64,000 nt of DNA, taken from contig CAVWLP010000003.1 of the NCBI GenBank assembly GCA_963755915.1, positions 928,001 through 992,000 of the forward strand, written 5' to 3'. Source of the stretch: an uncultured Phycisphaerales bacterium. GTDB taxonomy: Bacteria; Planctomycetota; Phycisphaerae; Tepidisphaerales; Tepidisphaeraceae. A program made the translations under genes and the position numbers. The notes beneath the pieces are model-generated. The model made no database searches. It worked only from the letters and a program-made list of their open reading frames with translations, and was not told the origin of the DNA. Below are positions 30,689-35,931 of the stretch, one piece after another (position 1 is the stretch's first letter; every line of letters begins with the position of its first letter).

Positions 30689-30726
30689 GTATCTAAAAAT
30701 GGTACGATTGTATTAGAAATGGATAC
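30689..30726 (+). promoter_or_regulatory. Paired operator-like boxes overlapping the MNT start
   Basis: GTATCTAAAAATGGTAC and GTATTAGAAATGGATAC, 21 bp apart. Confidence 0.5.
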
Positions 30727-31414
30727 TAACCACCCCCACACCCTCGGTACTTTCCTTCTCGGCAAAACCCGGGGGGCGGTACTTGCGCTCCTGCTCACCC
30801 ACCCCGATGAGCAGTTCTATGTCCGCCAGATCGCCCGCCTCTCCGGCGCGACCCTCGGCCCCGTCCAGAAGGAGCTGAAACTGCTCGAACGATACGGGGT
30901 CCTGAAATCCAATCGGATCGGCCATCAACTCATGTACGGCGTAAATCCCGCCTCGCCGGTGCATGACGAACTGCGCTCCCTCGTCATCAAAACGGTCGGC
31001 TTGGTGGACATTTTAAAGGCGTCCCTGGCCCCGCTCAAACAGCGCATCAAGCTCGCGTTTGTATTCGGCTCATTCGCCAGGGGCGAAGAAAATTTGAACA
31101 GCGATCTCGATCTCATGATAATCGGCGAAGTTTCGGTGGCTCAAATTGCCGGCGTCCTGGCGGATGCGCAGCGCCGCCTGAATCGGGAACTGAACCCGAC
31201 CATCTACCGGCCCGCCGAGTTCAAGGCGAAACTGCGCGAGGGACATCATTTCCTCAGCGCCGTAATGAGCGAGCCAAAGCTATTCGTCATCGGAGACGAG
31301 CATGAGCTTTCAGCAATGGCAGGCCAACGGCTGGATCCGGCCTCACGCGACGAGTCGCAAGGAAATCGGCTCGCTGCTGGCCGTCGTCGAGCGGGACCTC
31401 GCCACCAGCGCTGA
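30719..31414 (+). CDS. wHTH plus minimal nucleotidyltransferase (MNT) antitoxin
   Basis: YVRQIARLSG..VQKELKLL HTH; FVFGSFARG..SDLDLMIIG. Confidence 0.88.
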   Translation: MDTNHPHTLGTFLLGKTRGAVLALLLTHPDEQFYVRQIARLSGATLGPVQKELKLLERYGVLKSNRIGHQLMYGVNPASPVHDELRSLVIKTVGLVDILKASLAPLKQRIKLAFVFGSFARGEENLNSDLDLMIIGEVSVAQIAGVLADAQRRLNRELNPTIYRPAEFKAKLREGHHFLSAVMSEPKLFVIGDEHELSAMAGQRLDPASRDESQGNRLAAGRRRAGPRHQR

Positions 31415-31939: not shown

Positions 31940-32263
31940 ATGGCCGAGGAATCATCAATGGAATCATCACCCTCATCCCCCAACGTCCAGGTTCTTCTGG
32001 ATGAACGGGAATTGAGGCAGATTTACAGCAATTCTTATCGGATTCACGCCACCAATGACGAGGTCATCATTGACCTGGGCTTCAACATGCCCAACCCCAA
32101 TCCGCAAACCGGCCAGCAGCAGCTTCTTCTGAAGATCACCGACCGGGTCGTCATGTCCTACATGAACGCCAAGCGGCTCTCCCAGTCGCTCATGCAGCTC
32201 ATCAAGCGATACGAACAGCAGTTCGGTGAACTCGTGCCGCCAGGGCAGAAGAATCGGCTGTAA
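31940..32263 (+). CDS. DUF3467 domain protein
   Basis: YSN.YRIHATNDEVIIDLG..RVVMSYMNAKRL..YEQQFGEL; AGGAG RBS. Confidence 0.85.
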   Translation: MAEESSMESSPSSPNVQVLLDERELRQIYSNSYRIHATNDEVIIDLGFNMPNPNPQTGQQQLLLKITDRVVMSYMNAKRLSQSLMQLIKRYEQQFGELVPPGQKNRL

Positions 32264-32281
32264 TCCGAAGAATATCTCACG

Positions 32282-34254
32282 GTAGAGTAGAGAACTGAAC
32301 GACCCGATTGCCGCTCAGCTCTCCCTCTTCGAACCGGACGAGCGGGTTTCCCGCATCCGGCTCTCACGGTATTGTTCTTCTCAAGCATTCACGGTCGGAA
32401 CAGGTCGCAGGCTGATGAGGCCCAGACGCTGCAACTGTTCGTACCAGCTCCTCGCTCCGCGCACACGGAACGGACGCTGGCTGCGACGTTTAAGGTGTCG
32501 TTCCAGTCGCTCCTGCACAAATCGGTTGATCTGACGGAACGCCTTGCGCGGATAGCCTTTGCCGAAGTAGTTGGCCCATCCTCTCAGGTGCTCGTTGATC
32601 TGTACGATCAACGCCGGGATGGGCACAAAGCCTGCTTCGGGTCCGGTCATCTCCCGCAATTTGTCCCGCTCACGCTGCATCGACTTGCTCGAAGGACAGA
32701 GGTTCAGATAACGCCCCGGCCCGCCTTGCAGGCTCCGGTCGTACCGGAACCTGTACCCGAGAAAGTTCAGACTTTCGCCCGGCTCTTTCAACTTCACCGT
32801 GCGGGTCTTGTCGGTGTTGATCGTCAGATCAAACCGGCCTTGCAGCGTGCGTTCCACGAACTGCTTGATCTGAGGGCCTATATACCTTGCCATGATGACA
32901 AAGTCGTCGGCGTACCGGATCAGCCGGGCGTTCGCCCAGCGATGCGGGCCATCGGATCGGTGGAACAATTTATCAAACCAGTGCAGATATAGGTTGGCCA
33001 GCAGCGGCGAGATCACTCCGCCCTGCGGCGTTCCCTGTTTGCTCCGGGTGACTTTCGGTGGATCGCCGGGCTTCTCGCCTTCTTCGACGATCACCGCCTT
33101 CAGCCACATCCGGATCAGCTTCAGCACGCTTCCGTCCGTGATCCGCTTCTGGACACACGCCATCAGTTTCTCATGGGGAATCGTGTCGAAGTACGACTGC
33201 AAATCCGCGTCATACACTTCCCTTCGGCCCTGCTGGAGGTTTTGCTTGATCGCCTCCAGCGCATCGTGAGCCGAGCGACCGGGACGGAATCCATACGAAC
33301 AGTCCAGGAAATCCGCCTCGAAGATCGGCTCGATGAGCAGCAGCACCGCCATCTGCACCACGCGATCTCGGATCGTGGGGATGCCCAATGGACGCCGCTT
33401 GCCGTTGGCTTTGGGAATGTACACGCGCTTCACCGGCTGCGGGCGGTAGGTGCGGGTCTTGAGCGATTCTTCGATCTCGCTCAGGAATCCACTGACGCCG
33501 TGCTCGGAGTTTTGCACCTTCTCGATGCTCACCCCGTCCAAGCCGGGCGCCCCGCCGTTGGCGGACACCCGGTCCCACGCCGCTTCCAGAACATCGCGCC
33601 GGCAGATCCGGTCGTACAAGGTGTAAAACCGAAACCCCGGTTCCCGCTTGGCTTTGAGGTATAGCTTCTGTCTCAGAAGAAAGACTTTCCCCGGCAGACC
33701 CCTGGAGTTCACCCTCAGGTGCTCCGGCAAGTCTGTCGGATCATCCGTACTGTCAGGTTGTCCCTGCAAGCGGGCCTCTCTTCTTCTTACTTCCGCTCGA
33801 TACCGTCAGGGCTCCTTGGCTCGCGGCAGGCTTCGCCTCCGCTCACGGGCATTACCCCGCTTCTCAGCTACTATGAGCCCATCCGACTCCCCACGCTTCC
33901 CGTCCCTTGGTTATGTCTTTCCAACGAGCCGCACAACGATGCGTGGGGTCTCTCAGTTCCCGATCTTGTCTGTCGGCACGCGCCGTCCCCATCGACCCCG
34001 AGGAGCCGGACGATTGCTCGCACCCGCTGCTTCATCGTCCGCGCCGGCTTGGCCCTCTCTGACGGGTTGGCCACTCCCATTGGCGTAACGAGGCTGGTTT
34101 GGGTTCGCTTAACGCTACGGCTCGCGCCTTCGCCTTCCGGGGCTTCGCGCGACCGATTGCTCCGTCGTCACGCCCGGGCGGCTACACGGCTAACGGGTCA
34201 TTCCATGGTGAACTCCTTTCAGTTCACAAGACAAAACCGGTTTCACTGACGCAC
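32282..34254 (-). mobile_element. Complete group II intron (ribozyme plus RT/maturase ORF)
   Basis: 5' GTGCG at 34254; domain V GAGAGCCGGATGCGGGAAACCCGCTCGTCCGGTTCG with AGC triad; domain VI ending CTACTCTAC at 32282; flanks rejoin into a palindrome. Confidence 0.92.
32381..33769 (-). CDS. ltrA: Group II intron reverse transcriptase/maturase without endonuclease domain
   Basis: [62 protein letters not shown]. Confidence 0.96.
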
Positions 34255-34318
34255 CAGAGGCGCGAAGGCGCAGAGAGGTCAGTCCATCTTCTCTGCGCCT
34301 TCCGCCTCTGCGTGAGAT
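34255..34318. repeat. REP-like palindrome (intron target); its left end is displaced to 32274-32281
   Basis: ATCTCACG|CAGAGGCGCGAAGGCGCAGAGA versus TCTCTGCGCCTTCCGCCTCTGCGTGAGAT. Confidence 0.85.
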
Positions 34319-34329
34319 CCATTTTTCGT

Positions 34330-35931
34330 TTACGAAGCCAGCCGCGCGGCGGCCGATTCGCGATAGTTAACCGCATCGGCCAGTGCGTCGGCGGTCAGTG
34401 GGTGATTCCCGATATGCCGGATTTCCATCGCCGCGGCCAGTGAGCCGAGGTAGGCCGCTGCATGGAGGGAGCCGCCGCAGGCAAGCGTCAGGCTCGCCGC
34501 CGCCAATAGCGCATCCCCGCAGCCGAGCGGATCGACAACCCGCGTCGACAGCGCCGGCAGATATTCGCTGGAAAGCCGTCCCAGCATCTCTCCGGCCGAT
34601 TGCGGCGGCGGGCTAAACGTCACCAAACCTTGTTTTCCCAGCGTAATGATCGCCTGCCGCGCCTTGGTTTCGCTCAGAAGCTGCCATACGACGTTTCCCA
34701 ATCCGCTGGAAAAATCGTGCAGGGTTTCGCGGACTTCCCGCTCCGTCGGGCACAGCAGATCGACCGACTTGAATTTCAGCAAACTGCTCTGCCGGCCGCT
34801 GACGTCCGCGGTGATGATCGGCACGGTTTTTCGCAGCTGCGGCATGATTCGCTCCAGCAGCGATTCGGTAATCAGCCCATACCCAAAATCCGCGAAAATA
34901 ACGGCCGAAGCCCCCTGCGCCGCCGAGAGAATCTTCCCGGCGACCATCTGTTCGCATTGCGAATCGATGGGATCGACCGTCCCCTGGTCGACCTTGAACA
35001 GTTTTGTCTCATCGGCCAGATACCGGCTCTTTACGACAAGCTGCCGCCGGTGCGCGGTGGAATCAACCGAGATCCCCTGGCTCTGCAATCGCATGACCGT
35101 TTCATTTGAATCGCCGCACGGGCCCAGGGCCGTAATAAGCGACGGCTGAGCCCCCAGCCCGGCGAGGTGAAGCGCAATCACCGCCGCCCCACCGTCATAA
35201 TCGCGACTTTGAATCTGCCGAAGAGCGATCATTGGCCCTTCGCCGGCAACCCCCGTGGCATCGCACAGGTGATACCGGTCCAGGATAAAGTCCCCCACGA
35301 CCACAACTTTCTGCCCGCGGAATTTTTCGATTATCCGGTGCAACGACACCGCGTCGAGATCGAATTTCCGCTGAAAGCGGAAAACTTTTTCATCGGTCAT
35401 CGCGTCGCGGTCTTCCAGGGCGGAAATGAGGGCTGTCGAGGAATAAATCACGTCGCCGCTGGAAAAAATCACCCGTCCACCGTGCCGGGTAACGGCATCC
35501 CGTTCGGCAAGAAATCGCGGATCGTGATTCCGCTCATATTCTTTCCCCTTCACATAAACGTCCGGCTGAAGCTGCTCCAGCAATTCCGTCGCGGTTGGGT
35601 TGGGGTTCACGTAGACCCAGTCCACGCATTCCAGCGCCGCAAGGCTCGACGCCCGAAGGTCATCCGGAATCAGCGGCCGACCCACCCCCTTCTGCACCTG
35701 CGAATCGGCACTGACGGTTACCACCAATTCATCACCCAATGATTTGGCGTATTGGAGGTGCTGAATATGCCCGGGATGGACGATATCAAAACAGCCGTGG
35801 CAGTGGACGATCACCCGTCCCGCGGCCCGGGCCTCCCGGCGAACGCCCAGGAGCCGGTCGAGATTGCAGATTTTGCGGTGCGAGGCTTTGTCCAGAGAAG
35901 CCATTCTTCTATTTATCGGACGAATGGCCAT
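34330..35931 (-). CDS. Bifunctional cytidylyl/adenylyltransferase plus PfkB kinase (RfaE/HldE-like, reversed domain order)
   Basis: HGCFDIVHPGH, KGVGRP, YSST; VGDFILDRY, GGAAVIA, DPLGCGD. Confidence 0.85.
   Translation of the reverse strand: MAIRPINRRMASLDKASHRKICNLDRLLGVRREARAAGRVIVHCHGCFDIVHPGHIQHLQYAKSLGDELVVTVSADSQVQKGVGRPLIPDDLRASSLAALECVDWVYVNPNPTATELLEQLQPDVYVKGKEYERNHDPRFLAERDAVTRHGGRVIFSSGDVIYSSTALISALEDRDAMTDEKVFRFQRKFDLDAVSLHRIIEKFRGQKVVVVGDFILDRYHLCDATGVAGEGPMIALRQIQSRDYDGGAAVIALHLAGLGAQPSLITALGPCGDSNETVMRLQSQGISVDSTAHRRQLVVKSRYLADETKLFKVDQGTVDPIDSQCEQMVAGKILSAAQGASAVIFADFGYGLITESLLERIMPQLRKTVPIITADVSGRQSSLLKFKSVDLLCPTEREVRETLHDFSSGLGNVVWQLLSETKARQAIITLGKQGLVTFSPPPQSAGEMLGRLSSEYLPALSTRVVDPLGCGDALLAAASLTLACGGSLHAAAYLGSLAAAMEIRHIGNHPLTADALADAVNYRESAAARLAS

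Follow-up and report, generated by a model that had tools for sequence, protein, structure and literature searches.

Bacterial group II introns have been assigned three target specificities, namely long homing sites, terminator hairpins and attC sites, and an endonuclease (En) domain is missing from classes C, D, E and F alike (2015 review, PMC4424553). The present work deals with an En-less group II intron that lies in a palindromic repeat within a 64,000-nt stretch (the window) of contig CAVWLP010000003.1 of an uncultured Phycisphaerales bacterium (GCA_963755915.1). Several described systems resemble it in part. Class C (IIC) introns, including the IIC-attC introns, are likewise without En, target multicopy intergenic inverted repeats, form short pairings with their exons, have an exon-binding site 3 (EBS3) remote from EBS1 and carry a similar 3' end. 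However, they insert after a stem-loop, their intron-binding site 1 (IBS1) pairs with EBS1 over only 3-4 bp, and they have no EBS2 (PMC7923331, PMC3522654), whereas the site studied here lies inside the 3' arm of a palindrome, IBS1 comprises 5-6 bp, a short EBS2 is probable, and a hairpin is lacking at one site. RmInt1 and other introns that target insertion sequences (IS; class D, E.c.I4 and others) share the En-less reverse transcriptase (RT)/maturase, retrohoming through EBS1, EBS2 and EBS3, a multicopy, non-essential repeat as target and bursts of near-identical copies (PMC3522654, PMC5894124); their site is located inside IS transposase genes, in contrast to the non-coding palindromic repeat used here. 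The En-less introns of class F/g1-g4 (Ni.ha.I1/I2, So.us.I2, c-Ku.st.I1) resemble our intron in having an RT/X protein only, a IIB-like RNA and hosts among Acidobacteria, Planctomycetes and Deltaproteobacteria (Toro and Martinez-Abarca 2013, PMC3552965), but a preference for palindromic repeats is not mentioned in the main text of that paper. Finally, the use of extragenic palindromes as a safe multicopy target has been described for ISPpu9, ISPpu10, ISPa11 and IS1397, which insert into repetitive extragenic palindromic (REP) elements but are DNA transposons (Tobes and Pareja 2006, PMC1525189). The same paper gives a group II intron of P. putida KT2440 that is found in REPs in only 2 of its 9 copies (PMC1525189); it may be the P.p.I2 listed among the CL1A representatives in PMC3552965. 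In the literature searched, outside which some key works lie, no description was found of a bacterial group II intron lineage that homes into REP-like palindromes.

The analysis leads us to propose, with a probability of about 0.78, that the element is a class-F-like (IIB-type) intron without En, which invaded this genome recently and multiplied by base-pairing retrohoming into a target of approximately 11 nt carried by multicopy host palindromes. At the locus, in silico excision of the intron joins 32274-32281 (ATCTCACG) to 34255-34276 (CAGAGGCGCGAAGGCGCAGAGA), and the resulting 30-nt arm, which has one extra C, is otherwise the reverse complement of the 29 nt at 34290-34318. The palindrome sits between the stop codons of two convergent genes. 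Re-derivation from the sequence thus reproduced the coordinates and letters, the hairpin restored by excision and the convergent neighbours given in the original prediction, which was made from the sequence alone. The element has all features of a mobile, ORF-containing group II intron: the domain V/VI core and the GTGCG...CTAC ends, an open reading frame (ORF) in domain IV with RT and maturase domains, and EBS-IBS pairing.

The window corresponds to G000:C3:928001-992000 of an assembly of 6.63 Mb in 3 contigs with 81% completeness. In this genome (G000), blastn detected 12 full-length copies of the intron, nine at 100% and three at 99.95% identity, together with three partial copies, i.e., one internally deleted copy, one 3' fragment of 273 nt and one 5' fragment of 118 nt. 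GCGCCTCTG precedes the intron in 14/14 copies that retain the 5' end, and CG follows in all 14 copies that retain the 3' end (CGTGA in seven, CGCGA in five and CGCCT in two), which excludes chance as the origin of the common site. Since the flanks differ among the copies, they are independent insertions. After in silico removal of the introns, the genome contains 64 exact motif sites, of which 13 are occupied and 51 empty; base composition alone would predict 9.4 occurrences of the motif GCGCCTCTGCG instead of the 51 empty ones. The motif is part of non-coding palindromic repeats of about 60-90 bp, which are built of tandem 8-nt units (CGCCTCTG). A strict scan, which allowed the arms to lie up to 90 nt apart, tolerated a single mismatch in the 8-nt core and demanded complementarity at 13 or more of 16 positions, found 31 such palindromes, 10 of them occupied and 21 empty; a permissive scan, with two mismatches tolerated in each arm, was dropped since most of its 608 hits were spurious. 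Three junctions fall outside the strict set: the palindrome is degenerate at one, another seems to occupy the 5' member of an inverted pair, and the third has no partner arm. No palindrome of this genome carries two introns. The original prediction had regarded palindromes with the core CGCAGAGG/CCTCTGCG as a multicopy landing pad, and the 12 full and two partial copies at one motif and the occupation of 10 of 31 palindromes agree with this proposal. Two further, distant RT-like ORFs of the same genome (C2:2087128-2088057 and C2:3585047-3585628) are 25-31% identical to the intron RT.

Exon recognition was studied by comparison with relatives. Of 315 confirmed loci, 80 were fetched, their 5' and 3' intron ends were located, and domains I-III were aligned; covariation was assessed in a set of 28 introns, which comprised the window intron and 27 relatives after removal of identical pairs. 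Variation shared between introns and exons points to pairings at three places. EBS1 is displayed by a hairpin, CCC-GTCAGAGA-GGG (34053-34066, minus strand; intron nt 189-202), with the loop GUCAGAGA (nt 192-199). Intron positions 194-197 are paired with exon positions -1 to -4 in 96-100% of the 28 introns, with up to four types of base pairs, and an excess over the composition expectation continues at -5 (+0.44) and -6 (+0.28). The best four-column run in a scan of these introns scored 1.26 and corresponds to EBS1, compared with 0.54 for the next one. The sequences themselves differ widely, as illustrated by the EBS1/exon combinations CCAAG/CTTGG, CGAAUG/CATTCG, CAACGA/TCGTTG and CAUGAG/CTCATG. 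The EBS1 candidate picked out earlier from its complementarity to the exon is therefore confirmed by covariation with exon positions -1 to -6. The EBS3 position and the first base of the 3' exon form Watson-Crick pairs in 23/23 introns (G:C, A:T and T:A); as is the case for IIB and IIC introns, EBS3 is located at a distance from EBS1. A column-wise covariation scan of the 28 introns did not find an EBS2. However, an internal loop located 5' of the EBS1 hairpin (UUACGCCAAU, 34079-34088 in the window; CGUUAC(G/A)C... in the relatives) is complementary to a GYG-containing exon stretch at about -7 to -12 with variable spacing, and loop:exon pairs such as CGC:GCG, CAC:GTG, AACCC:GGGTT, GACUG:CAGTC, CACGG:CCGTG and AACAAC:GTTGTT can be recognized by eye. 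When the spacing was left free, the mean loop-exon score was 4.34 for cognate and 3.78 for swapped combinations (permutation p 0.002), and the window intron thus probably has a short EBS2 of 3 bp. Given the CGC:GCG pairing, the predicted target GCG-C-CTCTG^C would be the very block that is invariant across all copies. Another EBS2 candidate, GGCGCGA (nt ~125-131), which is complementary to exon positions -12 to -6, was rejected because it forms a strand of a conserved helix and covaries with its partner in the intron, not with the exons. Minimum free energy folding of intron nt 1-485 (z -1.9) was uninformative for the EBS assignment, and the comparative analysis was used instead.

According to the mechanism we propose, the target GCG-C-CTCTG^C(G), about 11 nt long, would be read by three RNA-DNA pairings, i.e., EBS1 (nt 194-199) with CTCTG, EBS2 (CGC, nt 170-172) with GCG, and EBS3 (G262) with the first exon base, a C. 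This target would be abundant because it makes up the outer, conserved portion of the 3' arm in a genus-wide family of extragenic palindromes, which are presumably older than the intron. As a palindrome reads alike on both strands, each element would offer a site on either strand. The sites are intergenic and mostly downstream of a co-oriented gene (according to an ORF heuristic, the longest ORF just upstream has the orientation of the intron in 10/13 copies); insertion would therefore be near-neutral, and the intron would be transcribed by read-through and spliced out. Retrohoming would proceed by reverse splicing, with priming from the replication fork, since no En domain is present.

A number of observations weigh against this explanation. 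The 51 exact motif sites mentioned above have stayed empty, and CTCT at positions -13 to -10 (34264-34267 for the window copy), which amounts to a perfect preceding repeat unit, is found at 0/13 occupied sites but at 22/51 empty ones. This difference was noticed post hoc and is unexplained; the motif alone is thus an incomplete predictor of use. EBS2 is just 3 bp long in this intron and has modest support, and a total pairing of 9 bp is short for a IIB-type homing site, so that a further determinant, for instance protein contacts or DNA structure, may contribute. In the contigs of public runs, neither an empty-site allele nor ligated exons were found, and no contig bridges the site; in run X1, the intron contig has a depth of 52 and the flank a depth of 3.6, which is compatible with many copies but does not represent a copy number. 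Furthermore, the GC skew flips its sign repeatedly on each contig, with C3 rising monotonically, so that replichores and a strand bias of the insertions are not assignable.

An alternative that we consider unlikely is that the ribonucleoprotein reads the extruded upper-stem hairpin on single-stranded DNA, upstream of short IBS2, IBS1 and IBS3 pairings, and that the palindrome is required as such instead of merely carrying the motif, in analogy to class C introns at terminators and attC sites. With a threshold of at least 11 of 14 complementary positions, an upstream partner arm is present at 12/13 occupied sites, which would fit this idea; it is also present at 38/51 empty motif sites, and the two groups are not significantly different (Fisher p 0.27), although the comparison has little power. 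At one full copy (C2:4622880-4624852), neither side provides a partner arm, and another (C2:3780871-3782843), which has upstream and downstream partners above the threshold, seems to occupy the 5' member of an inverted pair. The insertion point is located 8 nt inside the 3' arm and not after the stem-loop, and in a full hairpin IBS1 and IBS2 would be base-paired themselves, which should hinder pairing with the intron. The shortness of the pairing (~9 bp) favors a contribution of structure, as do the nearest solved RT, which is that of GsI-IIC, and the 3' end CUACUC(U/G)AC, which resembles the IIC consensus CCUACYCGAU published in PMC4028801. Among 43 distinct sites of the relatives (L028, L057, L064 and L078 were left out owing to miscalled boundaries), a complement of the last 12 exon nucleotides within ~54 nt upstream, matching at 9 or more of 12 positions, exists at 9 sites compared with 4.1% of 1720 control positions, and one matching at 10 or more positions at 5 sites compared with 0.6% of the controls, but 34 of the 43 sites have no such arm. 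In L019, L029, L053/54/58 and L055, which come from other phyla, the insertion is 2-4 nt away from the base of the 3' arm, and in L041-L044 and L046 a hairpin precedes the insertion by 10 nt. According to a 2021 paper, upstream secondary structure has no reported role for IIB introns (PMC7923331). The hairpin-directed insertion assumed in the original prediction is not borne out for this genome, where one occupied site lacks the arm, and the motif sequence by itself appears to suffice to explain the insertion sites.

It is quite improbable, in our view, that the element is a divergent IIC intron that inserts at inverted repeats as IIC introns do, although several features would agree with this. 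A domain search of the 462-aa intron ORF found RVT_1 (E 1.4e-33, residues 118-341) and GIIM (E 8.6e-14, residues 365-434) and no nuclease, DNA-binding or En domain, the lack of the last having been stated in the original prediction; EBS1 occurs early (nt 194) in a compact domain I; and the nearest solved RTs are of class IIC (223 and 186 bits, compared with 152 bits for IIB and 148 bits for IIA), with GsI-IIC at 223 bits and ~37% identity counted by eye. A CGC triad is present in four relatives (L010, L021, L055 and L064). On the other hand, the IBS1 interaction comprises 5 bp in this intron with a covariation excess to -6, instead of the 3-4 bp of IIC introns, a short EBS2 is probable, the ribozyme part is ~585 nt long, and insertion occurs inside the arm, with one copy having no arm, rather than downstream of a terminator or attC stem-loop. 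Compared by eye with the published IIC boundaries, 5' GUNYGCCNRGCAUGG ... CCUACYCGAU 3' (PMC4028801), the first 15 nt match 7/13 specified positions and the 3' end 7/10; the relatives match the first 11 nt of the 5' consensus better than this intron does. None of ten plasmid introns compared with the published boundary consensus matched it. The best plasmid relatives have RTs that are 40-46% identical. Among these relatives, the intron of plasmid 1 of Nitrobacter hamburgensis X14 (RT 42%) matches the domain I-III profile of the clade with 87 bits and a Mesorhizobium intron with 123 bits, the alignments covering ~420 profile positions; both have the same EBS1 hairpin, and their RT identities of 42-43% exceed the ~37% to GsI-IIC. 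Judging by the name of the organism, the former is probably Ni.ha.I1/I2, which has been filed under class F/g3 (PMC3552965). The Rfam D1-D4 subfamilies were rejected as class labels, as they are inconsistent within the clade (D1D4-6 for the window intron and L023, D1D4-4 for L041 and L088); a Klebsiella plasmid intron reaches 184 bits on D1D4-6 compared with 51-61 bits in this clade. In the window, Rfam reports domains V and VI at 32282-32365 (minus strand; Intron_gpII, RF00029, 53.6 bits, gathering threshold 40) and domains I-IV at 33986-34216 (minus strand; group-II-D1D4-6, 51.2 bits, gathering threshold 49). Of the domain V described in the original prediction, the AGC triad stood, but not the full length: it has 33 rather than 34 nt, one less than the Rfam consensus, in the upper helix. 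The lineage looks class-F-like rather than IIC, in a comparison made without a labelled IIC reference in a tree. The earlier assignment to a non-IIC lineage is in line with IBS1, the probable short EBS2, the insertion inside the hairpin and the alignment with the N. hamburgensis intron, but the nearest solved RT, the IIC-like 3' end and the CGC triad of some relatives speak against it.

The palindromes were also considered as a family of host repeats. The motif GCGCCTCTGCGYGA was found in 12/12 other genomes of the same genus with 1 to 85 hits each, in none of the six genomes that represent other genera of the family, and with a single hit in each of three among 12 genomes of the class. A reversed control pattern gave 0-1 match in every genome searched. 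An RT with at least 80% identity is encoded only by G000 and G002 among these genomes. Three same-genus assemblies of 5-9 contigs (G001, G006 and G011) contain 35-64 motif hits and no RT match to this query, and G010 has 85 motif hits with an RT match only to a 38% relative; in fragmented metagenome-assembled genomes (MAGs), absence counts as weak evidence; G014, which is unpublished and was counted in the tallies, has no motif hit and one RT match of 37%. The orthologous spacer of six same-genus genomes in no case contains the palindrome of the window: four (G003, G009, G010 and G012) have no palindrome at all, G011 has unrelated sequence, and G001 (L103, G001:C5:126682-130143, ~1960-2060) has another palindrome of short units (GGTGAGAAGGTAAGAAAGTGTGAAAG...) and their complement. 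The palindromes themselves are thus insertion-polymorphic, and they come in several families. It is highly improbable that they are by-products or dependants of the intron machinery instead of an independent host repeat. Such a dependence could account for the similar tandem-unit repeats ending in YG that flank relatives in several phyla and for the junction ...CTCTG^CGTGAGAT, identical to that of the window, at an intron with 65% RT identity in a Desulfomonile-labelled MAG (L009); however, it is largely refuted by the presence of the motif in all 12 same-genus genomes, including those without an RT match and the one with only a 38% relative, and by the 21 empty palindromes among the 31 strict ones. 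As short, imperfect, extragenic palindromes with 31 strict copies in one genome and a motif spread over the genus, the repeats agree with the REP family of the original prediction, but a link to a REP-associated tyrosine transposase (RAYT), as known for REP elements and REPINs, was not found. Two RAYT-like genes (Y1_Tnp) are present in G000 (G000:C3:1125127-1125471 and G000:C3:576500-576694; L081 and L082), and they are flanked by other palindromes (GGGGACGCAGCTAG...CTAGCTGCGTCCCC and TTTAGCCGCGACCCGCAGGG) that are unrelated to the intron target; the label REP is therefore descriptive only.

Relatives of the intron in several phyla are located in short repeats, which are often palindromic. In addition to the sites described above, insertions were found at the unit boundaries of tandem ATCTGCGGA repeats (L023 and L024), and the motif common to the 13 copies in one planctomycete MAG, ATTGGGTTYGRATTT^CC, is not palindromic. 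An 82%-identical intron of the same genus (L001/L097, G002:C445) has the EBS1 CCAAGA and is inserted at GGCGTCTTGG^CGTCTTGGCGG in tandem CGTCTTGG units; it lies on the 5' side of the DUF3467 orthologue, i.e., in the same neighborhood as the window intron but in another site and another repeat. At L028 (~808-950), two related introns are arranged in tandem 8 nt apart (TGTCGTTG, one repeat unit), the second being located at the next unit boundary. In a quick RT tree, the members that target palindromes are distributed among several subclades with support; the tree contains at least 11 rows with wrong ORFs as well as long branches and was used for this observation only. It is conceivable, though doubtful, that these introns form a non-IIC, class-F-like clade in at least five phyla, which is specialized on palindromes of tandem ~8-nt units ending in YG, retargets by changing EBS1, keeps a short EBS2 (C-R-C) and a YG^YG junction, and may have independently evolved an IIC-like reliance on extruded hairpins.

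The features of the locus are compiled in Table 1. A nucleotidyltransferase domain (Polbeta/NTP_transf_2) is encoded by an ORF at 30719-31414 on the plus strand, upstream of the DUF3467 gene.

Table 1. Features of the intron locus, given in window positions.
Feature	Position	Strand	Basis or remark
Group II intron, 1973 nt, 5' GTGCG ... CTCTACTCTAC 3'	32282..34254	-	Sequence and 12 full-length genomic copies
5' exon target GCGCCTCTG (IBS2 GCG, one C, IBS1 CTCTG)	34255..34263	-	Same in 14/14 copies with 5' end
3' exon start CGTGAGAT, IBS3 = C at 32281	32274..32281	-	On the plus strand, outer 8 nt of the left palindrome arm
Rest of palindrome	34255..34318		Inner left arm 34255-34276, loop 34277-34289, right arm 34290-34318
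EBS1 CAGAGA, intron nt 194-199, pairs with 5' exon CTCTG	34056..34061	-	Covariation, exon -1 to -6
Probable short EBS2 CGC, intron nt 170-172, pairs with GCG at exon -9 to -7	34083..34085	-	Complementarity test
EBS3 G, intron nt 262, pairs with C at +1 of 3' exon	33993..33993	-	Covariation
RT/maturase ORF, 462 aa from TTG (true start may be further in), YADD	32381..33769	-	RVT_1, GIIM
Domain V, 33 nt, AGC triad	32331..32363	-	Rfam alignment
Domain VI and 3' end (CUACUCUAC, kept in relatives)	32282..32330	-	Rfam, ends of relatives
DUF3467 gene, convergent with the gene beyond the palindrome	31940..32263	+	ORF and domain search
Cytidylyltransferase/PfkB-kinase gene, same orientation as intron, end 75 nt from intron 5' end	34330..35931	-	ORF and domain search

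At this locus and its counterparts, an En-less intron of IIB type has come to occupy roughly one in three members of a palindromic repeat family within a single genome. The use of repeated, harmless targets is not a new principle, as it is established for IS-targeting and IIC introns; the strategy of a safe multicopy target is known, and the combination of a class-F-like intron with a palindromic repeat family appears to be new. The targeting rules of this compact En-less intron are short and well defined, and the system provides a natural setting to ask whether sequence alone leads the intron to a safe multicopy niche or whether DNA structure contributes, and how fast EBS1 is retargeted between repeat families. 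If a palindrome-specialized clade does exist, it would represent a fourth target strategy, in addition to the homing sites, terminators and attC sites that other bacterial group II introns use.

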